A stretch of 64,000 nt of DNA from a virus, in the IMG/VR virus record IMGVR_UViG_3300021171_000008, positions 1 to 64,000 of that record; one strand, given 5' to 3'. The translations under genes were made by a program, and so were the position numbers. The notes beneath the pieces are model-generated. The model ran no database searches and was not told where the DNA came from. It worked only from the letters and a program-made list of their open reading frames with translations. Positions 473 through 52,884 of this stretch are shown here, in pieces. Positions within the stretch are counted from its first letter, which is position 1; each line of letters opens with the position of its first letter.

Positions 473-1876
473 ATGGTGAACCGCGTTCAGACGCTTCGCT
501 CTTCGGTGCCGGGGACTGCCCCCGCCCCAGGCACGCGCCAGCCCGGAGAGCTGTACGTAAACTTCCCCGACAATGCGCTCGGCGTCATCGACCCGACGCA
601 AAATCCCGTCGACCTGATCCCAGTGCGCTATTTCTCGTCTTTGGCGAGCTACTTCACCGGGGACTGTGTTCTCCAGAACGGGAGGATCTACGTCGCCACG
701 GGCATTTTCGGACCGGGTCCATTCAACCCGGCCGATTGGAACGTCGTGACGATGGCGACGGACCTCGCCCTCTACATGCCCCTCTCGGGAGGGACGTTCA
801 CGGGCGTGGTGCGGTTCCCGGCGAACAACAGCGTCGTCATCAACGGAGCCGCCGCAAGTCAACGCGCAATCCTCGGTCAGACAGCTGGGTTGAACCGTTG
901 GCAGATGCAGCTGGGGGACTTCACCGCCGAGAGCGGCGCGAACGCGGGGTCCAACTTCGTCCTGACTTCGATGAGCGATGCCGGAGGCAATCTGGGCGTT
1001 CCTCTGTCGATCAGTCGCGCTAGCGGAATAACCACTCTGCAAGGGTTGTCGCTGCCAGGGGGCGCGGCTGGAGACGCACTGACCACAGATGGTGCGGGCA
1101 ACCTATCGTGGGCTGTGCCTGCTGGTGGCGGCCCATCGGGTCCTCCCGTCATAGTCAGCGATACTCCGCCTGCCAATCCGGTCGAGGGCGACCTGTGGTT
1201 TGATAGCATCAGCGCTCAGACCTTCCTTTGGTTTACGGATGCGACCTCAAGCCAGTGGGTAATCGCCAACAACGCGCAGGGCGTGGCGGGTCCGCCAGGG
1301 CCTGCCGGCCCAGCGGGCGCCCCCGGCGCGCCTGGAGCGCCTGGAGCCCCCGGCGTGGGCTTCCCCGACGCACCGACAGATGGCCAGATCTATGGGCGCC
1401 AGGACGTCGCTGGAACCATGAGCTGGACGGCCGCAGCGGGCATCATCGGCGTCATCAATGGCAGCGACGCCGCCGCCGGTCAGGTCGGCGAAGTCATATC
1501 CAGCGTTATTTCTTTTCTCAATCGGGTGAGCGTTCTGGCCAACGCAGTCACCGTTGTCACATCAATTGCGCTGACGCCGGGAGATTGGGACGTTTCTGGC
1601 AATGTTGCGTGTTATTTAAACGCCGAAGTTGCCACGGCGATAAGCGCTAATATTAGTAATTCTGCGACAGTCCTTTCTGCGAATGCGCTTAACGGTTCGA
1701 TGAATGCGCTTCGGCCAAATGGCGGCTTTGCTAGTGCTCAGACAAATTATCTTCCACTCAATACTTGTCGTGTTTCTGTATCGGTTCCGACGACTTATTA
1801 TCTTCTTTGTCAGGTCCAAACCGCGACAATGACTTCCAGTGCTAGCGGCTTTATTTGGGCGAGGCGAGCGCGATGA
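473..1876 (+). CDS. Tail fibre protein with short collagen-like repeat
   Basis: GELYVN N-terminus, LSGGTFTG, SDTPP..GDLWFD module, GPPGPAGPAGAPG repeat; lower-GC C-terminal region. Confidence 0.75.
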   Translation: MVNRVQTLRSSVPGTAPAPGTRQPGELYVNFPDNALGVIDPTQNPVDLIPVRYFSSLASYFTGDCVLQNGRIYVATGIFGPGPFNPADWNVVTMATDLALYMPLSGGTFTGVVRFPANNSVVINGAAASQRAILGQTAGLNRWQMQLGDFTAESGANAGSNFVLTSMSDAGGNLGVPLSISRASGITTLQGLSLPGGAAGDALTTDGAGNLSWAVPAGGGPSGPPVIVSDTPPANPVEGDLWFDSISAQTFLWFTDATSSQWVIANNAQGVAGPPGPAGPAGAPGAPGAPGAPGVGFPDAPTDGQIYGRQDVAGTMSWTAAAGIIGVINGSDAAAGQVGEVISSVISFLNRVSVLANAVTVVTSIALTPGDWDVSGNVACYLNAEVATAISANISNSATVLSANALNGSMNALRPNGGFASAQTNYLPLNTCRVSVSVPTTYYLLCQVQTATMTSSASGFIWARRAR

Positions 1877-3264
1877 TCGACTTCCCAGCCAGCCCCACCA
1901 TCGGCGATCAGTTCACATCAGGCGGAACCACTTGGGAGTGGGACGGGGCCAAGTGGACGATCGTCCCAGGAACCTCGGGGCCTCCCGTCATCATCAGCGA
2001 CACGCCGCCCGCCAGTCCAGTAGTCGGCGACTTGTGGTGGGATAGCATCGGCGGCCAGCTCTATTGCTGGTTCGTCGATCCGACCTCGTCGCAGTGGGTG
2101 GTGGCGACCAACAACAGCGCGGCGATGCAGGGCTACTTGCCTTTAACGGGCGGCGTACTCAGCGGTCCGCTGACGGGTCAGGCGGCGACCTTCAGCGGGA
2201 TGCTGACTGGAGTGAACGCCACGCTCACCGGCGCCCTGGTCGCCAGCGGCGGCGGCACGCTCGGCGGCGCGTGGACCTTCAGCAACAATGTGACAGTGAA
2301 CGGCGCGACGACGCTCGCCAGTCTCACGACGAACGCGGCGACGGCCAACAACGGCCTCACGGTCACGGGCGTTCTCCCCGGCGGGCCGTTCGCCACCTAC
2401 GGCCTAGCGGTCGATGGCGGCGCGGATGGGGGGTACATCGCGCTGAACGCTGCGACGGCTGCCGCCGGAACCGGCGTCTTTGGTTATGTCGGCGACTTAG
2501 CGCGTTGGGGAATCAATCTCGGCGATGGCGCGGCGGAAACCGGCGCCAATGCCGGGTCGAACTTTTCAATCACTTCTTACGACGACACGGGCGCTGCTCT
2601 CGACACGCCGCTCTCGATCAATCGCGCCACCAGCAGCGCGACGTTCAGTAGCAACGTCACCGCCATTGGCTTTTTTACGACTAGCCTTGCAAGTGGTGAG
2701 TCGGTGATCGAGGTCGGCGGCGGGATACCCCAAGCCGGTGGCGGCCCTTGGTGGTTTCACACTACTGGCGGCGACTGCTTCGTGACTTTTCTCATTGATG
2801 GTGCGTTCGGGACCAATTTCGGCCTCAACGCCAACGGCCACTTCTACCAGGGCGGCTGGTCTGACGGCCCTGTTTACACGCAGTTTTGGACGTCAGCCGA
2901 CTTCGCCAATCCGGCTTGCGACTACCGGATCAAGGCGGATGTCGCGCCGCTCGCCTCGACCTGGGATCACGTCAAAGCGCTCAAACCGATCCGCTATCGG
3001 CAGAAGGAATTTTCGTTTCAGGAGCTTCCGGCGCCGACGCAGAGACGCGAGACCAATGTACCGTTGATCGAGGCCGACGATCGAGAGCGCTGGGGCTTCA
3101 TCGCCCACGAGCTTCAGGAGACGCTGGGTGAAACCGCTGCGACCGTAAGCAAGGATCATCCTGATCGGCTTCAGTCTCCGAACTTGATGGCTTTGATCGC
3201 CGCGCTGACGCGCACGGTGCAGGAACTCCAGGCGCGCGTCGAAGAGCTGGAGGCGCGGCCATGA
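1873..3264 (+). CDS. Tail fibre/spike with C-terminal intramolecular chaperone (peptidase S74-like)
   Basis: ATGA overlap with upstream gene; CDYRIK..GFIAHELQE..ELQARVEELE C-terminus. Confidence 0.8.
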   Translation: MIDFPASPTIGDQFTSGGTTWEWDGAKWTIVPGTSGPPVIISDTPPASPVVGDLWWDSIGGQLYCWFVDPTSSQWVVATNNSAAMQGYLPLTGGVLSGPLTGQAATFSGMLTGVNATLTGALVASGGGTLGGAWTFSNNVTVNGATTLASLTTNAATANNGLTVTGVLPGGPFATYGLAVDGGADGGYIALNAATAAAGTGVFGYVGDLARWGINLGDGAAETGANAGSNFSITSYDDTGAALDTPLSINRATSSATFSSNVTAIGFFTTSLASGESVIEVGGGIPQAGGGPWWFHTTGGDCFVTFLIDGAFGTNFGLNANGHFYQGGWSDGPVYTQFWTSADFANPACDYRIKADVAPLASTWDHVKALKPIRYRQKEFSFQELPAPTQRRETNVPLIEADDRERWGFIAHELQETLGETAATVSKDHPDRLQSPNLMALIAALTRTVQELQARVEELEARP

Positions 3265-4520
3265 TCGACTTTCCAGCCTCCCCTACGGTAGGCCAAGAAT
3301 TTACTTTCGCAGGCGTTACTTGGACTTGGGACGGGACCAAGTGGCTGGCGGCTGGGACCAGCCCTGGCTTCCTGCCGCTGACCGGCGGAGTCCTGACCGG
3401 CAATCTCGGCGGCGTAACCGCTGATTTTAGTGGTCAGGTGAATGCTCAGACGTTGGCTGGCCCAACCGGCGTTACGCCTCCCGTGGCGGCGGCGTCCCCT
3501 CCAGTCGCCGACAACAGCCTCGATTTGGCGACCACGGCGTGGGCCAACGCCAACGTCAAGATGGGCGACAACAGGCTCATCAATGGCGACATGCGGGTCG
3601 ATCAGCGTGGCGTCGCCAGCGGCGCGGGCGGGACGGCGGCCGGTTATACTATTGATCGCTGGCAATATTCTGCGATACAGGCTGCCAAAGGGACATGGAC
3701 GCGAAGTGCTTCGTCTGCGCCTGGGTTCCCTTATGCCTTGATGTTCACATCGTCGTCGGCTTACGCCGTTGTGAACAACGATATCTTCCTCTTCCTCCAA
3801 AACATCGAAGCCGACATGATCAGCGACTTCGCGTGGGGAACACCCAATGCGCAGCCGGTCACCTTGTCGTTTTGGGCTTATTCCAGTCTGATCGGGACGT
3901 TCAGCGGTGGTATCCGCAATCTCGCTATCCAGCGTGCTTATCCATTCACCTATTCGATTCCGGCTGCGAACACCTGGACGAAGATCAGCGTCACCATTCC
4001 GGGTGACACGGGTGGCGCATGGCCGCTTTCCGGCAGTGGAATCGGCGCGACGCTGGGTTTTAGCCTGGGGGCTGGGACCGGGACTTATAGCGCCCCTGCC
4101 AATGTGTGGGGCTCGACTTATGCCCTTGCTGCCCCTGGCTCGGTTAGCGTCGTCGGGACCAACGGCGCGATTTTTCAGATCACCGGCGTCAAGTTGGAGA
4201 TTGGCCCCGCAGCAACGCCGTTTAATCGCCAGTCGCTGGCCAAGAGTTTGGCGGATTGTCAGAGGTATTATCAGGCAAGAACGAATATGATCCAAATCGT
4301 TTCTTACATTAACGCTGGGGCTGATTTATATCAAGTCAATGGACTCCCCGTAACCATGCGTGTTGCTCCAACTGTCAACTTCACTGCTGCTTCATACTCT
4401 AATTGCAGTGCCGCTACTCTTAATCAAATTAGCCAAGATTGGATTACTGCACAAGCATCAGCTACAGCGACGGGCACTGCCTTCTTTACCATAACTTACG
4501 AGGCATCAGCGGAGCTTTGA
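3261..4520 (+). CDS. Tail fibre/receptor-binding protein
   Basis: MIDFPASPT N-terminus shared with previous gene; NRLINGDMRVDQR...DRW...VKLEIG..ATPF...CQRYY carbohydrate-binding-type fibre motifs. Confidence 0.8.
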   Translation: MIDFPASPTVGQEFTFAGVTWTWDGTKWLAAGTSPGFLPLTGGVLTGNLGGVTADFSGQVNAQTLAGPTGVTPPVAAASPPVADNSLDLATTAWANANVKMGDNRLINGDMRVDQRGVASGAGGTAAGYTIDRWQYSAIQAAKGTWTRSASSAPGFPYALMFTSSSAYAVVNNDIFLFLQNIEADMISDFAWGTPNAQPVTLSFWAYSSLIGTFSGGIRNLAIQRAYPFTYSIPAANTWTKISVTIPGDTGGAWPLSGSGIGATLGFSLGAGTGTYSAPANVWGSTYALAAPGSVSVVGTNGAIFQITGVKLEIGPAATPFNRQSLAKSLADCQRYYQARTNMIQIVSYINAGADLYQVNGLPVTMRVAPTVNFTAASYSNCSAATLNQISQDWITAQASATATGTAFFTITYEASAEL

Positions 4521-4522
4521 CC

Positions 4523-4738
4523 ATGGCCTATACGCAAGTCTGGGATTCTACGCGCAACCAAGTCCACGACGGCATTATCCAGCGCGACGAGGACGGCGCG
4601 TTCATCCCGTTCGACCCCGCTAACCGCGACTATCAGGACTATTGGGCTTGGCTCAATGAGGGCAACCAGCCCGCTGCGCCAGCGCAGACGCCTGCCCCGC
4701 TGCCAGCTAGACCGCCGCAAAAATCAAGCCGCAAATGA
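4523..4738 (+). CDS. Small tail-fibre assembly-associated protein
   Basis: IPFDPANRDYQDYWAW motif, directly after fibre genes. Confidence 0.55.
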   Translation: MAYTQVWDSTRNQVHDGIIQRDEDGAFIPFDPANRDYQDYWAWLNEGNQPAAPAQTPAPLPARPPQKSSRK

Positions 4739-5535
4739 GCTACACCTACGCCCAGTTTCAGCTCGCGCTCGCGAGCGAAATGATCGTTCCGAACAACAAC
4801 GTGAACGAGCCGAATTTCGTGCTCATTCTGCCAACGATCATCGATTACGCCGAGCAGCGCTGCTACCGCGAGCTGGACTGCCTGCACGCCGAGGCGCGGC
4901 AATGGTTCCCGATGACCGCCTACCAGCGCGAGCAGAGTTTCCTGGCGAGCGCCGCGACTTCAGCGAACCCGTCCCCCGCGCAGCAGATCCTCATCCCCGA
5001 GCGCGTCATCATCCAGCCTGTCGGCGCCACGCCTCCGATTGCCGGCGTGCCGCCCACGATGGGAGGCGAGCCCGCCGTTCCGGTCACCGTCGATTATATC
5101 GACGCCATCTACAGTGGCCTGTTTCCCGATCCTGGCCCATTTGGTCGGCCGAAAGTCTTCGCGCCGCTCACCGACACGGTCCTCGCTTTCGGCCCGACGC
5201 CGGATCAGCCCTATTCCTTCCTGATCCATGGCAAGTGCCGGCCGGTCCCGCTCTACAACGCGCCGCCCGGAGACGGCACACAGACGACGTTCCTGACCCA
5301 GGTCTTGCCCGATCTGTTCCTCGCCGCCGCTATGGTTTCCGCGAGCGGCTATCGCCACAACTTCGGCGCCCAGTCCGACGATCCGCGCATGGCGGTGAGC
5401 TGGGAGGGCCAGTACAACGAGCTGCTCGGCAGCGCGAAGAACGAAGAGACCCGGAAGCGCTTCCTCGGGTGGAACCAGCTGTCGTCCTACAGCGCGACCC
5501 AGGCGGCGCAACCGCAACCGGCCCCAGCGGGATGA
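4735..5535 (+). CDS. Tail tubular protein A / head-tail adaptor
   Basis: IIDYAEQRCYREL, GPTPDQPY, LPDLFLAAAM motifs; synteny. Confidence 0.65.
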   Translation: MSYTYAQFQLALASEMIVPNNNVNEPNFVLILPTIIDYAEQRCYRELDCLHAEARQWFPMTAYQREQSFLASAATSANPSPAQQILIPERVIIQPVGATPPIAGVPPTMGGEPAVPVTVDYIDAIYSGLFPDPGPFGRPKVFAPLTDTVLAFGPTPDQPYSFLIHGKCRPVPLYNAPPGDGTQTTFLTQVLPDLFLAAAMVSASGYRHNFGAQSDDPRMAVSWEGQYNELLGSAKNEETRKRFLGWNQLSSYSATQAAQPQPAPAG

Positions 5536-5538
5536 TCG

Positions 5539-7752
5539 ATGCCTTTCTCCACGGTGAAATTGATGCCGGGAGTCAAGGCGGTCCAGACGCCGACGCTCCT
5601 CCAGGCGAATGTCGTCGCGTCTAATCTGATCCGCTGGAGAGGCGGCCTGCCGGAGAAGTACGGCGGGTGGATGAATTTCTTCTCCTCCATCTTGGGGCCT
5701 TCGGCCGGCGGCCCGTCGAACGTCGCGATCCCCGGCGTCACGCGCGAACTGTGCGCATGGGCTGACCTCAACCTCCAGAACCATCTCGCGGTCGCTGGCA
5801 CGGCAGGCCTAAGCGCCCTGACGCCGACCCAGAACGGCACGCCATTCACGCGGAACATCTCGCCGCAATATATGGTGAGCAATACGAGCCAGATCTTCGT
5901 GACTGCGGCGGGCTCGCCGGTCGTTCAGATCACTGACAACGGCGCGGCGGTCAATAATTACGGCTCGGTCCAAGTCCAATGCCATGTCGCGGTCGGCGGC
6001 ATCGTCGTCTTCGGTTCGTTCCCGGTCACGGCGATGCTGACGGCGTTGCAGTACACAATCATGCTGCCCTTCAATGCGGCCTCGGCGGCTACGGTAAGCG
6101 CGCCATGCGTCGCGACGTTCACCTCGGTCCCGAACAGCGAAGTGATCACCGTCAATCTGCCCAACCATGGGCTCGTGCAGGGCTCGACCTTCGCCCTCCC
6201 GATCCCGACCGTCGTCGGCGCGAATGGCGAGGTCTCGCTTCAGGGCTTCTTCACCGTCCAGCTCATCATCGACGCGAACAACTTCATCATCTTCGCGCCG
6301 TTCTCCGTCCCGACGGCGGCCACCGTTCCCGAGGGCAATTTCGCCGGCTATCCGCAGATCCTCTATTGGGTCACGCAGGCGCCGCTCCTCCCGAACTCAG
6401 GCTGGGGTGTGGGCGGCTGGGGCGTCGGCGGCTGGGGCTCCGGCGCGCAGCCTACCCCGATCGTCGCCAATGAGTTCCCGCCGAATCCTGGGACGCCGGG
6501 GTTCGGCAACATCTCCGAGGACAGTTGGTCGCTCGGCAACTGGGGCTCGCAGCTGATCGCGAACGCGACCAATGGTCCTTTGTTCTTCTGGGACCCGATC
6601 AGCGGCATTCAGAACGCTCAGATGATCGCCAACGGGCCGAGCAATTGCACCGGCTTTTTCATTGGCATGCCCGAGCAGCAGATCATCACCTACGGCGCGA
6701 GCACCGCCCAGGTGCAGGACCCGATGCTGGTCGCATGGTGCGACAACGCGAACTTCAACGCCTGGACTGCGAGCGTCTCCAATCAGGCGGGAACCTACCG
6801 CCTCACGCGCGGGAGCAAGATCGTCGGCGGCATCCAGGGGCCGCAGCAGGCGATGCTGTGGACCGACGTCGGGCTCTGGGCAATGGCGTACATCGGCTAC
6901 CCCGACGTGTTCGGATTCAACGAGGTGGCGCAAGGCTGTGGGCTGATCGGCAAGGACGCCATCGCTGTCTACGGCCCGCAAGTTTTCTGGATGTCGCGTG
7001 ACGCCTTCTGGATGTACTCCAACGGCGTCGTGCAAAGATTGCAGTGCGACGTCTGGGATGTGATCGTCAAGAACCTGAACAACGCGAGGGACAGCAGCGG
7101 AAATTATCTCTATTTCGCGCACATCCGGGGCGCGGCGAACAGCGGCTACGACGAGGTCATGTGGCACTTCCCCTCGCAGGCCTCGGTGAACGGCGAGAAC
7201 GATAGCTGGGTCAAATTCAACCCGGTCACGGGCGAGTGGGACTATTCGCTCTCGACCCCGCAGCAAGGCATGGTCGGCAATACGCCGATCAATGTGAGCG
7301 CGTGGATCGACAACAACATCTTCGGCCATCCGATCAGCTCGATGATCGCGGCCGGCGGCGCGACCTCCATCATCATGCAAATGGAGATGGGAAACGACGC
7401 CAACGGGAAGCCGATCAATTGGATGATCCAGACTGGCTTTTTCATGCTCTCCGACGGCGAGGACAAAGTCTTCGTCGACTTCCTGCTGCCGGACTTCCGC
7501 TGGCGGCGCTGGCAGCAGCCGCAGAGCGTCAGCGCCCAGGTCCAGATCACACTTTACACGGCCGAATATCCGGACGATCCGCAAGATCAATGGGTGGCCT
7601 ACGGTCCCTTTATTGTCACGAATGCCACGGGAGGGATTGAGCCCCGAGCAAGAGGGCGCTATTTCTTCGCCGAGATTCAGGGCAACGACCTCGGATCTTT
7701 CTGTAGGTTGGGCGGTATAAAATTCCGGTTCGCCGCAGACGGGCGAAACTGA
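5539..7752 (+). CDS. Tail tubular protein B / nozzle (P22 gp10-like)
   Basis: 737 aa beta-rich protein; LIRWRGGLPEKYGGW start, GCGLIG, RARGR..RLGGIKFRFAADGR end. Confidence 0.7.
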   Translation: MPFSTVKLMPGVKAVQTPTLLQANVVASNLIRWRGGLPEKYGGWMNFFSSILGPSAGGPSNVAIPGVTRELCAWADLNLQNHLAVAGTAGLSALTPTQNGTPFTRNISPQYMVSNTSQIFVTAAGSPVVQITDNGAAVNNYGSVQVQCHVAVGGIVVFGSFPVTAMLTALQYTIMLPFNAASAATVSAPCVATFTSVPNSEVITVNLPNHGLVQGSTFALPIPTVVGANGEVSLQGFFTVQLIIDANNFIIFAPFSVPTAATVPEGNFAGYPQILYWVTQAPLLPNSGWGVGGWGVGGWGSGAQPTPIVANEFPPNPGTPGFGNISEDSWSLGNWGSQLIANATNGPLFFWDPISGIQNAQMIANGPSNCTGFFIGMPEQQIITYGASTAQVQDPMLVAWCDNANFNAWTASVSNQAGTYRLTRGSKIVGGIQGPQQAMLWTDVGLWAMAYIGYPDVFGFNEVAQGCGLIGKDAIAVYGPQVFWMSRDAFWMYSNGVVQRLQCDVWDVIVKNLNNARDSSGNYLYFAHIRGAANSGYDEVMWHFPSQASVNGENDSWVKFNPVTGEWDYSLSTPQQGMVGNTPINVSAWIDNNIFGHPISSMIAAGGATSIIMQMEMGNDANGKPINWMIQTGFFMLSDGEDKVFVDFLLPDFRWRRWQQPQSVSAQVQITLYTAEYPDDPQDQWVAYGPFIVTNATGGIEPRARGRYFFAEIQGNDLGSFCRLGGIKFRFAADGRN

Positions 7753-17964: not shown

Positions 17965-18093
17965 GGTTTCGACTCCTGTAGGCGACATAAATATAGCGTT
18001 ATTTGCACGATCTGCAAGTGCCGGTCAGGGCTCGCACACCTTGTCCGAAGCGGCAGTCGGTACCATGCTTCAGCGGACGCGATGGTCATCAGG

Positions 18094-38288: not shown

Positions 38289-40286
38289 TTAGCCATTTGG
38301 TTTCGACTCCTTAATGATCGCCAGCAGATCGGCCGGAACCTGCCGCCCATACTTGATCGCGAGCTTCCGGCCGTACTGGGCTTGCTTCTGGCTCAGCGAT
38401 TCGCGGTGGGCCAAGCTGTGGCCAAAGTCAGTGTCCAATTTATTGAAGCCGCAGCCATCAAGGACTTGAGCGCCGTCACATAGCCCCGCGATGATCCTCA
38501 GAGCGTCGTGGACGGCTTGGACTTGCTGGCCGGTCAGATCATCCGCGCCAGGAGCCGGAGGGGCCTGGACGGGCTTCTCTGGGGCTCGGACGGGCTCATC
38601 GAGAGGCTTGGGCGCCGGGAGCGCGGCCCCAGGCTTGTCGAGCGCCGCGTCGGCAATCGCCGCCTTGTCCACGTTCACCTGCGCAATGTGCGCGTCCAGC
38701 GAACCGTCAAGCACGACATACTGGATGAGAACCGACTCGCGCTGACCAATGCGGTGGGCCCGATCCTCGGCCTGTTGGTTCCAACCTGGGGTCCAATCTT
38801 GCTCGGCGAAGACAACGTGAGTCGCCGCCGTCAATGTGATGCCAACGCCGGCGGCCTTGATCGAACCGACAAACACGCGGCAGCTCGGATCAGATTGGAA
38901 ACGGTCAATCCGCGCCTGCTTATCGGCCGCGCTATCGCCGCCCATAAGCTTGACGGCGCCGACATCGGAAAACTCTTTCGTCAGGGCTTCGACGACGTCC
39001 CGGTGATGGGCGAAAAGTAAAATTTTACCTTCGCTGCCGTCCAGCGCATCGCGAACGTGCTCGATCACTTGCGGGAGCTTGGCGAGGGCGATTTCATGCC
39101 GCAGCGCGCTCATCTCCTCGAAAGCGGCCCCAGAGGCGTCCTCTAGGGCCGCCACAGCCGCCTCGAACGCTTTGGGGTCTTCTGAGGCCTTCGACGCCTG
39201 GAGGGCTTCCTTGGCCTGCGTGACGCGCTCTGCGAGGGCGTTCTGCCGCTCGATCAGGGCGCGCGCCTTCTTGCTCGGCTCAAGCACGATTACCTGCCGA
39301 CGCTTGGGGGGCAGCTCGGTCAGAACCTCGCTCTTCAACCGGCGGATCATGAACGCAGCGCGGAGCTTGCTGTTCAGCTCAGGGAGGTTCGACGCGCCGT
39401 CGATGTCCCAGCCATATTCGGTCTGATGACCGGCACAGTAGCGGACGTGGAAGCCCCGCCAATTGGCGCCCAGCCCCTGCCGGTCGAGCGCGTGAACGAT
39501 CGTCCACAGCTCTTTCGGGCGGTTTAAGATGGGCGTGCCGGTCAAGAACAGGCGGCGCGCAGCGCGGATCGGCGCGACCTTCCAGGCCTTCGCGGCAGCG
39601 TCCCACTTGCCGAATATCGCCTGGGTGCGCTGCGCCTTGCCGTTCTTGACGTAGTGGCACTCGTCGAAGATCGCGAGATCCCAGTCCACCGCCTTGATCT
39701 CGGCGTCGAACTTGCGCAGCACGTCATAATTGACGATCACCACGTCAGTCGCCGGCCAGCCGCCGTTGGCGACGCCAATGCTGAGCGGACGCACCAGCCA
39801 CTTTCGCAGCTCCCGCTCCCAATTGATTTTGAGGCTCGCAGGGCAGACGACCAGAACCTTGCGGATCGACGGCGTGGCATTGATGACGCCCGCAGCCTGG
39901 ATCGTCTTGCCCAGGCCCATTTCATCGCCGATCAGGGTATTGGTGCGCGCCGCCGCATAAGCGATCCCGGCCCGCTGGTAGGGGAGGTAGTTGAGCCCTA
40001 ACTTGCGGCAGACGTCGGACAAGGGAAGGTCGATCGCGGCATCGGTCGCGTGCGAGGCGACAATGGAGGCCTCGCGAGCCTGATGCTGCGCCTGCCGCTC
40101 GGCGTTAATGCGGGCGACGAGGTCCGCGTTGTCGCCGTCGATCTTCGCCGCGATCTCCGGCTTGTCGGTCCACCAGACTTTGCGATCGGGGTTCCACCGG
40201 AACCCGGCCGCCTTCACGATATCCTTGTCCGCGTAGTCGGACCGCGCGATCCAAATGCGGCCCTCTTGCACAACTTTGATTGCCAT
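38289..40286 (-). CDS. SNF2/HARP-like helicase
   Basis: DEMGLGKTIQ, DECH, LTGTPILNRP, GVGITLT, QAEDRAHRIGQ. Confidence 0.92.
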   Translation of the reverse strand: MAIKVVQEGRIWIARSDYADKDIVKAAGFRWNPDRKVWWTDKPEIAAKIDGDNADLVARINAERQAQHQAREASIVASHATDAAIDLPLSDVCRKLGLNYLPYQRAGIAYAAARTNTLIGDEMGLGKTIQAAGVINATPSIRKVLVVCPASLKINWERELRKWLVRPLSIGVANGGWPATDVVIVNYDVLRKFDAEIKAVDWDLAIFDECHYVKNGKAQRTQAIFGKWDAAAKAWKVAPIRAARRLFLTGTPILNRPKELWTIVHALDRQGLGANWRGFHVRYCAGHQTEYGWDIDGASNLPELNSKLRAAFMIRRLKSEVLTELPPKRRQVIVLEPSKKARALIERQNALAERVTQAKEALQASKASEDPKAFEAAVAALEDASGAAFEEMSALRHEIALAKLPQVIEHVRDALDGSEGKILLFAHHRDVVEALTKEFSDVGAVKLMGGDSAADKQARIDRFQSDPSCRVFVGSIKAAGVGITLTAATHVVFAEQDWTPGWNQQAEDRAHRIGQRESVLIQYVVLDGSLDAHIAQVNVDKAAIADAALDKPGAALPAPKPLDEPVRAPEKPVQAPPAPGADDLTGQQVQAVHDALRIIAGLCDGAQVLDGCGFNKLDTDFGHSLAHRESLSQKQAQYGRKLAIKYGRQVPADLLAIIKESKPNG

Positions 40287-40337
40287 TGAACTCGACTCCA
40301 AAAAAGAAAACCGGGCGGTAGGCGCCGCCCGGTCCTG

Positions 40338-40366
40338 ATATGGCATGCTCTGCAAAAACCGTCAAG
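40338..40366 (-). promoter_or_regulatory. Sigma70-type promoter
   Basis: CTTGAC-N17-CCATAT. Confidence 0.7.
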
Positions 40367-41304
40367 ATGACGCCAGTTTTTATCTCGCCGCATAAGCCTT
40401 GCGGGCGTAACTCAGCGCGCAGCGGAGCGTGCAGAACGGGTCATAGCCGCCCGTCCACGATTCGCCGTCCCACACTTCCCGGTAGGCGTGCAGGGTGGGC
40501 GTGTCGGTGTAGAAGCGCGGGTCCGGCTCTTCCCTCTTGCGCGCGAGGCCGCCAGCCCATGAGGTTCGTTTTTGCTGATCGGCCAGGAACTCCGCTTTGA
40601 GCCCCAGCCGGCTCGGCTCGCTCGTCTTCCAGACGACGCCGTTGCCGGTATAGCTCGGCATCGGCTCGCCCTCGGGCCAGCGCACGTCCTCCTGATGCGT
40701 ATGGCGCTGGCCATACTTGGCGCCACAGTGGACGCAAACCGGGCGGCTGGACCTCGCCATGCTGTGAGGCCGGGTCACAGCTCCACCTGATTGCGGACCC
40801 AGCTATAGCGCAGGCTCATCGCAGCCCCCTATGGGTTGGCCCATAAGGCAAAGCGCGGCCTAAACAATTGTTCATTTCCTGCGCCATATCGCGGCGCGCA
40901 TCGGCTGTCCGCAGCTCGGGTTTGTCGTTGCTCTCAAAAAGCTTAGTCATGATGCGACAAAGCCGGATGTAATCGTCGCGATCGAGGAGGTAGTGCTCCG
41001 CGTCTCGCGCGCTTTGGTGTTCCATGGGTTCGACTCCTTCTCGGTTTCGATCGATCGATCGTCCGGTCATGCGCGCCGCCTAGACGCGCATGGCCTCACG
41101 TTCGCTCAACCCATCGCGGCGAGCTGGAGGGCGTCGCACATATGCTCGAACGCCTTCCACTCGTTGTCATCGCGAGTGATCCGCGATTGCTCGCTTCTGA
41201 GGCGGCCCAGCGCGTAGCCAACCTCCTCCGCCGAATAGAGTCCGGCGAGCGCGAGGGCGCGCAACGCCACGCGATACAGTTCAACGGCGTCTTCGCTTGG
41301 GGCA

Positions 41305-41592
41305 TCAATCATGGTTCGACTCCTTCAATCGACCGAGGGCGCGTGCCGCCTCTGCTTGTCGTTTCTCTTGAGCGGCGGCGCCCCTAACCTCGTTCCAATG
41401 AGCGCGCAGCTCACGATCCAAACAGCCACAAGACTTTGTGTGGCCCCTGCGCAGATTGTTGCTGCGCGCGATCGAGGTCGCGCCGCAGTCGCATGAACAA
41501 TTCCAAAATGTGTGCTTGCCAGCTCGCGCGGCGAGTCGGACGGCAATGAGCCGCCCGAAACGGATTCCGCTCAGATCGACGATGGCGGGCAT
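41305..41592 (-). CDS. N-terminal remnant of HNH/AP2-type homing endonuclease
   Basis: DLSGIRFGRL..WNCSCDCG..LRRGHTKSCGC; no nuclease domain follows. Confidence 0.6.
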   Translation of the reverse strand: MPAIVDLSGIRFGRLIAVRLAARAGKHTFWNCSCDCGATSIARSNNLRRGHTKSCGCLDRELRAHWNEVRGAAAQEKRQAEAARALGRLKESNHD

Positions 41593-42506
41593 TAGGCGGC
41601 CTCCAGAGCGGGTTCCTCCTCGTCCGCCTCCTCTGCACTCACCTTGCCGCGTAACCAGTCTACGGCCTTGCTGGCCGCACTGGCGGCGGTCACGATCGCC
41701 GTCTCTTTCTGGGACAGGAGCGAAACCCAGTGGTCGATGTAGGCGGCCGGAGCCTCGCCCATGTCGATGCCCCACTCGGCGCAGACGAAAGCCGCCGTTA
41801 GCTCGGCGATCAGCTCCTCGGCCGCATATTCGCGGTCCCCAAACTTGCCCTTCAGCTCGCGGCCCAGGCGCGAGGGATGCCCGGTCGCGTGGCCCATCTC
41901 ATGAAAGAGCGTGCTGTAGAAGGCATGGGCGCCGACAAAGGCCTCAAACGCGGGCATCTGGATGCGATCGAGCGAGGGCGCATACTGGGCGCGCGCGCCT
42001 CGGCCTTCCTCGATGCGGATCTCGGTCGCGGCGACGAAGGCGTCGAGATCAGCGTCGCGCCCGTCAGGATTGACCGGGGCATGCTGGCGAGGCTCGCCCA
42101 GGCCCATGACCGAATCCGGCAGCCCCTCGCACTGCGCCACGTTGAAAACCGTGTAGCTGCGCAAGAAACCAATGGTCTTTTTCTCGCCAGGATTCTTATC
42201 GTCCTTTACGAGCATGCGCTTGACGAAGATCACGGCGACGCCGTGCTCGTGTTTCTTGACGTTGCCGCCTGCCGCCTTGGCCTGCTTGAAGGTCAGCCAG
42301 CGCGGCGTGCTGTAGCCCTCGACCTCGGCCACGCCCCAGAGCAACAGGACGTTAGCGCCGCTGTAGAAGCGGCCGGTGACCGCATTGCGCGGCATCACGC
42401 TGCCATGCGCGCCAACGCGCTCGGACCAGGGCTTGCGCCAGGGCGCAACGCCAGTTTTCAGCTGGGCGAGAATCTTGTCGGTGATCTCGCGGTGCATGTC
42501 TCGCAT
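41592..42506 (-). CDS. ardC: ArdC-like ssDNA-binding antirestriction protein
   Basis: PWRKPW, YSGANVLLL, WLTFKQA, VFNVAQ, HEMGHATGH, YAAEELIAE. Confidence 0.88.
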   Translation of the reverse strand: MRDMHREITDKILAQLKTGVAPWRKPWSERVGAHGSVMPRNAVTGRFYSGANVLLLWGVAEVEGYSTPRWLTFKQAKAAGGNVKKHEHGVAVIFVKRMLVKDDKNPGEKKTIGFLRSYTVFNVAQCEGLPDSVMGLGEPRQHAPVNPDGRDADLDAFVAATEIRIEEGRGARAQYAPSLDRIQMPAFEAFVGAHAFYSTLFHEMGHATGHPSRLGRELKGKFGDREYAAEELIAELTAAFVCAEWGIDMGEAPAAYIDHWVSLLSQKETAIVTAASAASKAVDWLRGKVSAEEADEEEPALEAA

Positions 42507-42557
42507 TGGGTTCGACTCCAAAAAGTTAAAGGGCGCGGGTAGGCCTGCGCCCCTCTC

Positions 42558-42586
42558 AGATAGCGTTAGATGCAAAAACTGTCAAG
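42558..42586 (-). promoter_or_regulatory. Sigma70-type promoter
   Basis: CTTGAC-N17-CTATCT. Confidence 0.75.
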
Positions 42587-42956
42587 ATGGCGACGATTTT
42601 GGATTGCGGGCGCGCCGCTCGGCCTCGGCCCTGGCCGCCGCCTTTTCCTTGGTGCAGTGGCGAATATGCGCCGCCTTCCCCAGCGCATTGTTGGTGATAC
42701 GATCGCCGCAGATCGGGCAGACGACACGCCGCCAGCGAATTTTGCGGGTCATCAGCGCAGCTCCTTCCGCCGCGAATCCAGCTCGGCGCGGATGGCCTGA
42801 AGGTGAAGCTCCAGCACGCTCATCGCCAAACCGCACCGGGTTGAATCGCCGCTCTTGATGGCCTCTTCCGCGCGGCGCGCCTCGCGACGAATCTCGCGGC
42901 AGCGCGTAATGATGTTTACGCAGTCCATTTCTCGACTCCTTCAGATTGCTGTGAGT

Positions 42957-43022
42957 AGGCTCATCAGGCGGCGCCTTACGCCGCGACACAGAGGCCCCAG
43001 GACGGGCCTCCGCGTTTCGCCC
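42957..43022 (-). ncRNA. Hammerhead ribozyme, type II
   Basis: GGGC-GAAAC-[GCGGAGGCCC/GGGCCUCUGU]-GUC-[GCGGCG/CGCCGC]-CUGAUGA-GCCU. Confidence 0.9.
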
Positions 43023-43411
43023 TGGTTCAGAGTCCCGCTCGCGTTCCTCAGACGTAGACTTTCCCGCTGCCGCCCTCTTCGATGTCGATCGGGTCATATT
43101 CGCCCGTGACCGCGCCGAACTCGTCAGGCTGCAACAGATATTCGCGGACATGTTCCCAGCCGCGATCTGCGGTGCGAGGCACGATGCGCAAAAGATGCTC
43201 CGGCGGGAACCCAAAGGACTCGTCCTCAAAATCAACGCGCACGCAGTCCGCCGTCTCGCGCTCGCTTCCAGTGACAGTCGCCAACTCGCAAGCGACCAGC
43301 CGTCCGTCCCAGTCGGCAATGTCATCGCCCTCAAGGTCCACTCGGTCGCCAATGCGAATATCGGCGGCCTTCACTTCGATCATGCATTCCATGGTCTTCG
43401 ACTCCGTTGGT

Positions 43412-43467
43412 AGGCTCATCAGTGGCGGCCAAACCGCCAGACGCGCGCCAGAGCGCGCGTTTCGCCT
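43412..43467 (-). ncRNA. Hammerhead ribozyme, type II
   Basis: AGGC-GAAAC-[GCGCGC/GCGCGC]-GUC-[UGGCGG/CCGCCA]-CUGAUGA-GCCU. Confidence 0.92.
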
Positions 43468-43646
43468 TCAGAACTTGACCGGGATCATGGTGACGCAATT
43501 GTCCTCTGTCTTTTCCAGGCGGACATGGCGCCACATATGGAGTTCGCGATCCCGGCGGATGCGCGCGAACTGTTTAGCCTCGGACTCATTGTCGAAGGCG
43601 CGGATCAGGTCTTGAGTGATACCGGGGTAGGTCACGATCCACTTGG

Positions 43647-44039
43647 TCATGCTGCCCTCCCGAGCGGGAACCGCACCGGCAGAGCCTCGCGGGCAAGACG
43701 ATCGCGCTTGGCCGCCATGGCCGCCTTGTAGGCCTCGACAATGCCCCCGTGCATGCCGACGCGGTCGAGGGAGAGTTTGCCGGTCGCCCAGGCGGCGCGA
43801 TCGGCGTTAGCCTGCGCCGCGAACTCAGCGCGAATCTTCGCGCGGTGTTTGGCGTCGTCGACGTGCGCCGTCTTCTGCCCGCTCGGGGCATTAGTCGGCC
43901 AAGTGTCGACCGCGACCTTGCGGCCGGGTTTCGCTGGCTTGGTGTAAATTGGCCCCCAGGACTCGGGCTCGACGCGCTTGCCGTCGCGATAGGGCAAGTC
44001 CTCGAACGAAAACGGGCGCAGATCAGATTCGCGTGACAT
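43647..44039 (-). CDS. Hypothetical early protein
   Basis: Follows promoter 44084-44112 and GGAGTCGAACCC RBS. Confidence 0.55.
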   Translation of the reverse strand: MSRESDLRPFSFEDLPYRDGKRVEPESWGPIYTKPAKPGRKVAVDTWPTNAPSGQKTAHVDDAKHRAKIRAEFAAQANADRAAWATGKLSLDRVGMHGGIVEAYKAAMAAKRDRLAREALPVRFPLGRAA

Positions 44040-44083
44040 GGGTTCGACTCCAGTTTGGGCGCCGTAGGCGGCGCCTGTCCCTC

Positions 44084-44112
44084 AAATAGGGGGTTACGGT
44101 ACGCCGGTCAAG
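44084..44112 (-). promoter_or_regulatory. Sigma70-type promoter of early operon
   Basis: CTTGAC-N17-CTATTT. Confidence 0.75.
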
Positions 44113-44443
44113 CTATTTTCGTCGTCATCGTGACGATTTTCTCGAGCCGGAACGGACTCCTTATTACATTGTCCCCAGCCAGTCCCCTTCCCAGGCTCGA
44201 GGAACAGCCAGTTTGTCCCGCGCTTGTCCCCAGCTCGGACATGTCCTCGTTTGTCCCTCGCAGCTGTCCCTTTTCGGTCCCTCAAGCCACAAAACGCGAT
44301 AGGCGATTAAACGGCCAGAAACGGTCGCTGAGACGCCCCTTTTTGCAGTCGATGCAGATCCCCTAGATTGCAGAGCGCCCGTCAGCGCCCTGTTTAAAGC
44401 CCAGCAAAGGGCTAAAGGTGTTACAACCTAAGCGTCAGTTGTG

Positions 44444-44746
44444 TTAGGTCGGTTTCAGGTTTTTGAGGTAATTTTCCGAAATTTGCGCGCTAAGCCTTTG
44501 GCGACCTTCAGTGTACCAAGCTGGGGTTCTTTCCCTCGCAAGCGGATTCGGCGGCTTAGGCGGGACATGCAGGCTCAATCCCCGACGCCGTTGACCGAGG
44601 GCATAGATCTGCCGGACCCGCTCGCGCGACAAGCCAAACTCATCGCCGACCGATCGCAGCGTTCGCCCCGATAGGACCGCAAGCCTTATTGCCTCATCGC
44701 GTTCCGGCGTCCTCGTCCAATTGCCTTCAGCGATCCCGTACAGCAT
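44444..44746 (-). CDS. Sigma70 region-4-like HTH protein
   Basis: GRTLRSVGDEFGLSRERVRQI. Confidence 0.7.
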   Translation of the reverse strand: MLYGIAEGNWTRTPERDEAIRLAVLSGRTLRSVGDEFGLSRERVRQIYALGQRRRGLSLHVPPKPPNPLARERTPAWYTEGRQRLSAQISENYLKNLKPT

Positions 44747-46120
44747 GGTTCGACTCCTCACTCCACTTGCAGATCATGCAAATGGACGCCAGGAATGGAT
44801 CGCGGTCAAGAGCGCTTCAGTGGATCTCGTCGTCGACGTCGAAGTCTCGCTTGGGCGATGGCTCACGGTCGTCGATCGCTTGCCAGTTGCGCTCGGTCTT
44901 TTGAGCGCGAATTTTCGCCAGCTCTTTGTCCGTGAGCGTGCCGAACCGATCGACCAGCTCAAGCTTGCCGCCGTTGTACCAAGCCGCGCCTTTGGTCGGA
45001 TTGATGAGCCGACGCCAGACGTCGCCGTGCTCGGCCTGGAAGCGCAACCGTCGATCGCGGACGAAAGCGCTGTCCGCAATGATCTCCACCGTGTCAGGGA
45101 TCTCGCCACGCCGCAGATAGGGCCACAGGCGCGCAGCGATGATCCACTCGCGGCAATTGGGCTTGCGGAACGCCTCATGCGCCCAACGCCCGCAGTGGGC
45201 TAATTCGCCGCTATCGCGAATCCAGGCCAAATCGCCATAACGCCGCTCGGTCAGTACGCGCGCCGTCAAAGTGCGGTCCGAGCGTTTCGCGGCCGGTCCA
45301 GGGCGCCGAATGGAACAGGTGATCAGCACCGCGCGCGTGGCTCGATTGATCACCGCCCAAGGCTCAAACAACGCCAGAACCTCATCAGCGCTCGCCAGGG
45401 TTGGACTTCCCCGCCTCGCAATTTCAATCATTTGCGCCTCCGCTACCAAAACCTGTCAAGCGAAATCGCCACTCCAAAAACCCCAATCTTATCAAAGCCA
45501 AAACCCTAAGCCCTTGACATCCTTCAACTGTCCCTGCTATCCCCTCGCGCGCGAATCCCTAACAAATTACAGCAGCCCACTGGGCCTAGGCGTCGCTAGG
45601 CCCCCTGTGGGGATGCGACTGCAAATGATCAACCATAAAAAACCTTCGATCTTAGGGCTTCTAGGGGACGTTAGCGTCCCTATCTCCTCCCTTTCTGCAC
45701 CTTCTGCAAGCGCTTCTAAGCGCTTCGCGCCTTACGGCGAAGCTTAGAAGCTCTCTCCTATAAAAAGACAGCACAGAGCCTCTACCTTCGTTCCCCTTCA
45801 CCCGCTGGTCCCTTCCTCGGAGACTGAAACGAGTGTCGTTTTGTCCTGTCCCTGGCCGGTTCTGCGCCGGTTGCGCGTCGAGCGCTGCGAGCGGGCTCAA
45901 ACAGGGGCTAAGTGCTTGATGTTGCTGAGTGCTGTGCGTGTATCTGAAGATTGTGAGACACGCAATAAACGCATACCACTTCCGGGGCGTGCATCGTGCC
46001 AAATCAGTGCCAATAGAGGGCCGCTGCGGCGGCAGGAGGGTGGGGGGGGGACCGCCCATCTTGAACTTTTAGGCTTGTAGCGTTGAGGTAAAAATCTGGT
46101 TGGTTTGGCGGAGATTGAAC

Positions 46121-50273: not shown

Positions 50274-50350
50274 GCCCAGGTAGCTCAGTTCGGTAGAGCG
50301 CTGCGTTGAAGGCGCAGGCGTCGGAGGTTCGATTCCTTCCTTGGGCACCA
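50274..50350 (+). tRNA. trnF: tRNA-Phe(GAA) with encoded CCA
   Basis: Full cloverleaf: GCCCAGG/CTTGGGC acceptor, CTGCG-TTGAAGG-CGCAG anticodon arm, GGAGG-TTCGATT-CCTTC T arm. Confidence 0.9.
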
Positions 50351-51209: not shown

Positions 51210-51295
51210 CATTTCTGGGCCTTGACGTTTCGCAGATCGTGCAAATATGGGCGAAACCACGGCCTACCGTTGGCTATTACAGCAAAGGAGTCGAA

Positions 51296-52614: not shown

Positions 52615-52884
52615 GGCAAGGCAGGCACGGTTAGGTGGGGCCGGGTAAGGCGAGGCAGGGTCAGGTTAGGTCCGGTGAGGCAGAGCAAGGCAGGCGCGGC
52701 TGGGCTGGGCAAGCCTTGGGCGGCATGGCTGGGCGCGCTTTGGTATGGCTCGGCAGGGCTCGGCAGGCACGGCGTGGCAAGGCGCGGCGAGGCTTGTCAA
52801 GGCATGGCTGGGCTAGGCGAGGCAGGCGAGGCAAGGCGAGGCTCGGTCTGGTGCGGCCGGGTCAGGCGAGGCAGGCCATGGCAC
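52615..52884 (+). ncRNA. Main GGY-NN pentamer array (four units separated by GGCA), putative guide RNAs
   Basis: About 50 GGY-NN units starting 10 nt after the partner gene stop and ending at a terminator. Confidence 0.85.

Follow-up and report, generated by a model that had tools for sequence, protein, structure and literature searches.

Among the systems described so far, the clustered hammerhead ribozymes of prophages are among the closest to the locus reported here. According to Perreault et al. 2011 (PMC3088659), such clusters flank single prophage genes, are found as sets of three in Agrobacterium tumefaciens (around ardA), Azorhizobium caulinodans and Clostridium scindens, and cleave both in vitro and in E. 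coli, the triple set around ardA included. The same work proposed that long phage transcripts are cut down to mRNAs of gene length, and it reported type II cleavage at 0.5 mM Mg to be slower by 20- to more than 100-fold once the pseudoknot is lost. This pairing of loop I with the tail is present in most type II hammerheads but is not obligatory. In vivo cleavage was later confirmed for type II hammerheads near phage-like genes in Desulfovibrio vulgaris, and hammerhead chemistry leaves 5'-OH and 2',3'-cyclic phosphate ends (PMC8782182). A 2019 review nevertheless described the purpose or benefit of bacterial or phage hammerhead cleavage as still undefined (PMC6765202).

The two predicted ribozymes described here, HH-A and HH-B, share with type II hammerheads (Rfam RF02276; PMC3088659) the core, the permuted topology and the AGGCGAAAC...CUGAUGAGC frame, and HH-A can form the consensus pseudoknot as well. 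Like the prophage clusters, they are neighbours that bracket a short gene without known function near an antirestriction gene, and processing of a polycistronic transcript, the role considered below, is the role proposed for those clusters (PMC3088659). The differences are that the antirestriction gene is here of the ArdC type and lies behind the next promoter, not between ribozymes, and that the DNA analysed has two copies, whereas related contigs have up to about 10. A second comparison is with HHphage of the haloviruses HF1 and HF2, where the mapped 5' end of the transcript is no more than 3 nt away from the cleavage site (PMC3088659). HHphage is a core variant from an archaeal virus that may need high salt, and it precedes the first ORF of its transcript; HH-A and HH-B, by contrast, have canonical cores and are internal to an operon. 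Finally, RiboJ and similar synthetic insulators yield identical 5' ends and raise mRNA and protein levels (PMC6206723). In these, as proposed here, a hammerhead before the RBS removes upstream RNA and leaves a standard 5' end led by a hairpin, but RiboJ was engineered from the sTRSV ribozyme with an added hairpin and is placed behind promoters, while HH-A and HH-B are natural, of type II, and situated between cistrons. The likeness is one of functional analogy, not of membership.

The element class, the type II pseudoknot and the gene-flanking prophage clusters have been known since 2011, and HH-A and HH-B are new examples of them. The match between ribozyme-born and promoter-born leaders was not found in the accessible part of PMC3088659, and leader equivalence, the abutting of stop codons as a rule, the hairpin between core and tail, and arrays of about 10 copies were not found in the accessible parts of the hammerhead literature (PMC3088659, PMC8782182, PMC6765202).

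The locus and its two hammerheads

The window, i.e. the whole stretch of DNA analysed, covers the first 64,000 bases of a viral record that is 78,422 bases long and rated complete. The phage genome encodes tail fibre, portal, DNA-ejection, RecT and primase/helicase genes; as to relatives among cultured phages, just weak ArdC matches to Caulobacter and Brevundimonas phages were found. A tRNA gene is located at 50274-50347 on the plus strand (Rfam tRNA, 60.8 bits). At ~52620-52880, also on the plus strand, GGY followed by two variable bases is repeated with a period of 5 nt; this long array ends in a terminator-like hairpin and resembles the GGY/NN vrRNA arrays of the VIPR systems named in a preprint (10.64898/2026.04.26.720920). 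HH-A and HH-B are part of an operon of five small genes (130, 60, 114, 58 and 56 aa) on the minus strand, which runs from the promoter-like site P1 at ~44111. Its features are given below in the order of transcription, with L numbers denoting loci in other viral contigs.

43647..44039, minus strand: 130-aa gene (p130), operon gene 1; 93-96% kept in L003 and L005, 58% in L004
43468..43650, minus strand: 60-aa gene, operon gene 2; its TGA (43470-43468) abuts HH-A, and its protein is identical in L005
43412..43467, minus strand: HH-A, type II hammerhead with core CUGAUGA + GAAA, by Rfam RF02276, family model and descriptor
43439..43440, minus strand: predicted scissile bond of HH-A, 3' of C17 of the GUC at 43442-43440, read from the sequence
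43407..43410, minus strand: CCAA tail of HH-A; 4-bp pseudoknot possible with UUGG of loop I (43432-43429)
43048..43392, minus strand: 114-aa orphan gene between HH-A and HH-B; identical in L003, with an unrelated gene in its place in L005
42957..43022, minus strand: HH-B, type II hammerhead by descriptor and family model (64.1 bits); 17.5 bits in Rfam
42984..42985, minus strand: predicted scissile bond of HH-B, 3' of C17 of the GUC at 42987-42985, read from the sequence
42949..42967, minus strand: predicted rival hairpin CUG(A)UGAG-CCUA-CUCACAG, pairing the catalytic core of HH-B with its 3' tail
42752..42928, minus strand: 58-aa gene downstream of HH-B; 70% identical protein behind the syntenic hammerhead in L005
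42582..42752, minus strand: 56-aa Cys/His-rich gene (CPxC...HxxHC), an unlisted ORF with a 1-nt overlap with the stop of the 58-aa gene (TGATG)
42506-41592, minus strand: ArdC-type antirestriction gene, preceded by the promoter-like site P2

The five small genes gave no Pfam or PHROG match. The Atlas provided no lead for the 114-aa protein, its matches being below lead level, and the zinc-binding matches of the 56-aa protein were weak and all sub-threshold. The stop of the 56-aa gene falls within the -35 hexamer of P2. The 114-aa gene has two in-frame TGA codons seven codons apart (43050-43027, minus strand), the second at 43029-43027; this one is separated from HH-B by 4 nt, as is typical of the family described below, which suggests that the stop of this gene has moved upstream.

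The first base of HH-A directly follows the TGA of the 60-aa gene, and the next ATG is at 43392. Stem I (UGGCGG/CCGCCA, 6 bp) is closed by the loop UUUGG and followed by CUGAUGA; stem II is AGGC/GCCU (4 bp) with GAAA next to it; and stem III has 8 bp, namely A15.1-U16.1 and seven G-C pairs, with the loop UCUG. The predicted 3' product begins at U43439, with a flush stem I hairpin. HH-A matches Rfam RF02276 (Hammerhead_II) over its full length, model positions 1-66, with 39.3 bits against a gathering threshold of 37. The possible pseudoknot agrees in loop and tail alike with the consensus of both Rfam and Perreault et al. (PMC3088659). Furthermore, the lowest-energy fold of HH-A is the hammerhead fold, and the type II topology is reproduced in it.

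HH-B is built in the same way, with a stem I of 6 bp (GCGGCG/CGCCGC) closed by the loop UAAGG and followed by CUGAUGA, a stem II of GGGC/GCCU that includes one G-U pair, and a stem III of 12 bp, two of them G-U. The first stop of the 114-aa gene is 25 nt upstream, and the next start codon (GGAG...ATG) is at 42928. HH-B differs from RF02276 in its long stem III, its lack of a pseudoknot (loop and tail can form 2 bp at most), its core-complementary tail and its score. A reading of the sequence alone had proposed the Rfam hammerhead models as a check; HH-A passes it, while HH-B reaches 17.5 bits in a 141-nt scan (E = 0.2), short of the threshold of 37 that Rfam sets for members, and is absent from the Rfam reports of the 7-kb and whole-genome scans. 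We attribute this low score to the long stem III insert and to the non-consensus loop I and tail. Given that HH-B is sub-threshold in Rfam, a descriptor evaluated against shuffled sequences and a family-specific covariance model were used.

The descriptor specifies CUGAUGA, GAAA, A15.1-U16.1 and UH, together with two hairpin stems (I and III) that have 4 bp or more each and an open stem II that has 3 bp or more. In the 128 kb formed by both strands of the window it matches exactly HH-A and HH-B, both in the permuted type II topology with stems I and III capped and stem II open; in 300 dinucleotide-preserving shuffles it has 0 matches. Perreault et al. specify C3 U4 G5 A6 N7 G8 A9, G12 A13 A14, A15.1-U16.1 and an H17 that is not G, and they disallow multiple stem mispairs and any mispair adjacent to the core, i.e. 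at 10.1-11.1, 1.1-2.1 or 15.1-16.1 (PMC3088659). Both ribozymes have CUGAUGA, GAAA and a GUC with C17. The three core-adjacent pairs are, in this order, G-C, U-A and A-U in HH-A and G-C, G-C and A-U in HH-B, and all stems are contiguous in both, with three G-U wobbles in total in HH-B. What the sequence-only reading had stated about a complete core, type II architecture and different, fully paired stems is therefore borne out for both, as are its predicted cuts at 43440/43439 and 42985/42984 on the minus strand.

The frame GGCGAAAC...GTC...CTGATGAGCCTAC is present in 22 viral-contig loci. It also occurs in six assemblies of bacteria or archaea whose phyla are unrelated, and none of these six genomes is related to the phage. 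A covariance model of the family, R1, was built from 21 distinct viral copies; since HH-A and HH-B are among these training sequences, their scores of 77.2 and 64.1 bits are partly so by construction, and the E-values of 1e-15 to 1e-18 from this home-made model are rough. With filters off, R1 has HH-A and HH-B as its sole matches in the 78-kb phage genome, and over the viral-contig loci it finds 41 hammerheads, 40 of them distinct, including the two in the window. In the alignment of the 40 distinct sequences, which was fitted to the model and so somewhat favours the structure, 97.9% of cells are paired (65% for shuffles, 33-46% for slid partners), 16 of 18 pairs have two-sided changes, and the covariation score is 0.77 as compared with 0.17 for shuffles and 0.05-0.13 for slid partners; these family statistics ignore relatedness among the copies. 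Relatives keep the complementarity of loop I and tail with different bases (UUGGU:ACCAA, UGGG:CCCA, UGAG:CUCA, GGCCG:CGGCU); the family-wide enrichment of this pseudoknot is weak (P = 0.14 for at least 4 bp, P = 0.04 for at least 5 bp). In HH-A, the pairing of the UUUGG loop with the downstream CCAA, likewise put forward earlier, is possible as UUGG with CCAA.

High-GC DNA is rich in spurious ORFs, and the plus strand has a 177-aa ORF (43082-43615) that overlaps this locus, so that the motifs might in principle be chance look-alikes or a by-product of coding sequence on the opposite strand. This explanation is effectively refuted by the lack of descriptor matches in the shuffles, the E-values of the family model, the score of HH-A above the Rfam threshold, and the position of both elements between conserved genes that have SD sites and are encoded on the same strand as the ribozymes. 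Taken together, the comparisons support HH-A and HH-B as genuine type II hammerheads of a covarying viral intergenic family.

The position of the ribozymes is as characteristic as their structure. As had been pointed out from the sequence, each ribozyme has a stop codon before it and the next RBS after it (the GGAG...ATG starts are at 43392 and 42928), with HH-A right after the TGA. In 30 of the 40 distinct hammerheads the stop of the upstream ORF is found -1 to +7 nt from the first base of the ribozyme, and an SD with a start codon follows 15-37 nt after stem II, again in 30/40; by these distances, the slot between stop and SD is a rule of the family. HH-B, with its stop 25 nt upstream, seems to depart from this rule, but its second in-frame TGA is at the typical distance. 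The two cut sites are 455 nt apart and bracket the 114-aa gene, a layout that also occurs in L003, L004, L005, L009 and L012. Type II arrays in one orientation with short genes between them comprise about 10 hammerheads within 5.6 kb of L012 (IMGVR_UViG_3300047317_000073, array at 1650-7250); the number is four for L004, and L009 and L003 have three apiece.

Sequence alignments also place the ribozymes at the junctions of cassettes. Between the window and L005, homology passes HH-A, stops inside the region of the 114-aa gene, whose counterpart there is unrelated, and resumes exactly at the GUC of HH-B (42987). Between the window and L003, 99.6% identity starts at 43427, a position within the stem I/core part of HH-A, with the gene and stems upstream being different; L003 also has an extra gene, hammerhead and leader behind the same promoter, and flanked genes are inconstant according to Perreault et al. 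(PMC3088659). The ribozymes might then be mainly module junctions, their invariant cores and leaders serving as homology patches for cassette swaps and any effect on expression being secondary or neutral. We find this unlikely as the main role: homology for recombination alone would not keep compensation in three stems, an intact 11-nt core and a fixed slot in 30 of 40 copies, and homologues in other prophages are catalytically active (PMC3088659). It should also be noted that junction and catalytic roles are compatible.

A predicted hairpin between the core and tail of HH-B

The lowest-energy fold of HH-B is not the hammerhead. It contains the rival hairpin, in which the tail CUCACAG pairs with the CUGAUGAG core, and at -52.6 kcal/mol it is 4.2 better than the fold with the hammerhead pairs enforced (-48.4 kcal/mol). 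The same hairpin appears in the predicted fold of the HH-B 3' product. Core-tail complementarity of at least 5 bp is found in 14 of 38 family copies, compared with 6.5 +/- 2.2 when tails are shuffled (P about 0.0015, with relatedness among copies uncorrected), and the free core position N7 covaries with its partner in the tail (CUGAC:GUCAG versus CUGAU:AUCAG). For HH-B by itself, however, shuffled tails often fold equally well (fraction 0.3). On these models the core-tail hairpin might hold cleavage back, or it might serve the RNA once cleaved as a second hairpin that protects it.

Given its sub-threshold score, its lack of a pseudoknot and a fold that hides the core, HH-B may be slower or conditional. 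In the strongest form of this explanation, HH-A alone would be efficient and constitutive, whereas HH-B would be slow, decaying or conditional, with most transcripts left uncut at this site unless a ribosome, a protein or high Mg opens the hairpin; in an alternative version, the hairpin would arise only after cleavage, as a second 5' hairpin. Several observations speak against a defective HH-B. Its core and adjacent pairs are all as Perreault et al. specify, it scores 64 bits in the family model, and energy models ignore tertiary contacts. HH-B is identical in L003. The copy at the syntenic position in L005 differs in stem III, opens stem I with U-A where HH-B has G-C, and has A-U in stem II where HH-B has G-U; at the level of sequence, these changes are direct compensatory support for stems I, II and III. 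The UAAGG loop fits the common pentaloop of the family, U-NNN-G, and recurs on different stems in L006, L012 and L025. Hence, HH-B looks like a maintained element and not a wreck, and we hold the division into one efficient and one slow ribozyme to be possible but doubtful.

A further helix in the lowest-energy fold of uncut HH-B, GACUCU:GGAGUC, masks the SD and suggested that cleavage unmasks the RBS. We set it aside as probably fortuitous, since GACUCU is absent in L005, L006 and L017, which have the same leader.

Leaders shared with promoter-like sites

Downstream of each ribozyme, the RNA would continue with the leader GCCUAC...GGAGUCGA, in which GGAGUCGA is the Shine-Dalgarno region. The same leader is found behind candidate sigma-70-type promoters of the phage. 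In the window, GGAGTCGA occurs 18 times compared with 3.5 expected, and GCCTAC with GGAG within 30 nt occurs 11 times compared with 2.2 expected. The other intergenic leaders, at 44069, 42544, 40323 and 17983 on the minus strand and 51262 on the plus strand, follow promoter-like sites of the form TTGAC-N17-TAT. At four of these five sites (not at 17983) GCCUAC is located in the loop of a hairpin that begins at about the predicted transcription start. The following features belong to these sites.

44058..44111, minus strand: P1, promoter-like; TTGACC 44111-44106, TATTTG 44088-44083, hairpin GGCGCC-GCCUAC-GGCGCC 44075-44058
42528..42585, minus strand: P2, promoter-like; TTGACA 42585-42580, TATCTG 42562-42557, GCCUAC-loop hairpin 42555-42528 with a U-rich run next to it
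40336-40307, minus strand, and about 51257-51273, plus strand: further GCCUAC hairpins directly behind promoter-like sites

A strict E. coli-type promoter scan of 40000-46000 called no promoter, P1 included. Our promoter calls rest on TTGAC and TAT hexamers that are conserved across seven contigs, and these hexamers appear to resemble the alphaproteobacterial consensus. The -35 and -10 hexamers and the hairpin of P1 are kept in L003, L004, L005, L009, L015 and L017, with a variable spacer. GCCUAC-loop hairpins recur in the same six loci and in L006, where the stems covary and the loop is invariant. Counted over all 172 occurrences, GCCTAC is in a hairpin loop in 34 and is not top among its base permutations; the case for the hairpins is thus one of position and conservation, not of loop count. 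They are possible 5' stabilisers, attenuators or protein-binding sites. The hairpins at 42555-42528 and 40336-40307 are followed by U-runs and have the look of intrinsic terminators, yet they are situated between promoter and RBS. In addition, at least 8 copies of GGGACA(A) lie upstream of P1 at 44110-44400 (minus strand), with one more between the -10 and the leader hairpin; the copies, which L003 and L005 have conserved, resemble an array of iterons or operators. Hammerhead scars were sought at four promoter leaders, but the model matches there are weak (7-12 bits, E 0.3-9) and individually not significant.

The sequence-only reading held that cleavage would leave the same leader as on promoter-born transcripts. 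This is correct for the sequence, the SD and the spacer. It is not correct for the position of GCCUAC, which is in the hairpin loop in promoter-born RNA and after stem I in ribozyme-born RNA; in the class to which HH-B belongs, it becomes the loop of the core-tail hairpin. Importantly, the two kinds of 5' end are interchanged before one gene: in the window and L005, p130 follows a promoter hairpin, in L004 and L003 it follows a hammerhead, and it keeps the same GGAGUCGAACCCAUG (SD and spacer) in either case. L003 retains the promoter and leader of p130, but there they feed the extra gene, followed by hammerhead and leader. Given the shared SD, spacer and leader and the interchange at p130, the idea of equivalent leaders holds, amended for the position of GCCUAC. 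A novel reading, milder than that of a circular RNA given below and similarly regarded as unlikely, is that a factor of the phage or the host might recognise the GCCUAC hairpin loop common to both leader types.

Predicted processing of the operon transcript

In the mechanism that we propose, host RNA polymerase probably transcribes the five-gene operon, which lies just upstream of the ArdC gene, from P1 at ~44111; we infer that expression is early. HH-A and HH-B would act in cis, fold once transcribed and cut themselves 3' of GUC, at 43440/43439 and 42985/42984. Three RNAs would result. The first would encode the 130- and 60-aa proteins and have the stem III hairpin at its 3' end, which would bear a 2',3'-cyclic phosphate; the second, of 455 nt (43439-42985), would carry the 114-aa gene only; and the third would carry the 58- and 56-aa genes. 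The expectation that cleavage releases monocistronic mRNAs is thus fitting for the middle product and not for the other two, which have two genes each. The halves should separate after the cut, because in the type II topology just the 4-bp stem II joins them. Each downstream RNA would then start with a 5'-OH on the flush stem I hairpin, behind which come the GCCUAC leader and the GGAGUCGA SD region.

Promoter-born and ribozyme-born RNAs alike would begin with a flush 5'-terminal hairpin, which is a classical protection against 5'-end-dependent decay. Since the layout of the ribozyme-born RNAs is that of a promoter-born first cistron, the ribozymes would be natural insulators of the RiboJ type: internal cistrons would each gain a 5' end that is both defined and protected, and their stability and translation would be uncoupled from those of their neighbours. 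We conclude, with a probability of roughly 75%, that HH-A and HH-B are both cis-acting intercistronic type II ribozymes that split the operon mRNA into three in an insulator-like manner. Cleavage, the end chemistry in vivo, and the effects on stability and translation are predictions drawn from sequence in this account.

A different fate can be conceived for the 455-nt RNA, which comprises the SD and the 114-aa ORF. HH-A and HH-B share the same stem II, so that the 5' part of HH-A (stem I, CUGAUGA, GCCU) and the 3' part of HH-B (GGGC, GAAA, stem III, GUC) could assemble into a chimeric hammerhead. This would juxtapose the 5'-OH and the cyclic phosphate for ligation, catalysed by the ribozyme or by RtcB, and the RNA would close into a circular, exonuclease-proof phage mRNA. 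We consider such a circle highly improbable.

The locus is a compact test case for the role of bacterial and phage hammerheads, with two canonical-core ribozymes and one small gene between them. It offers a contrast within one operon, HH-A having a potential pseudoknot and HH-B a tail that potentially masks the core. The relatives in which p130 is behind either a promoter hairpin or a ribozyme make the idea of a standard 5' end directly testable. If this idea is true, the ribozymes would give internal cistrons promoter-like, protected 5' ends and would be a natural counterpart of RiboJ.
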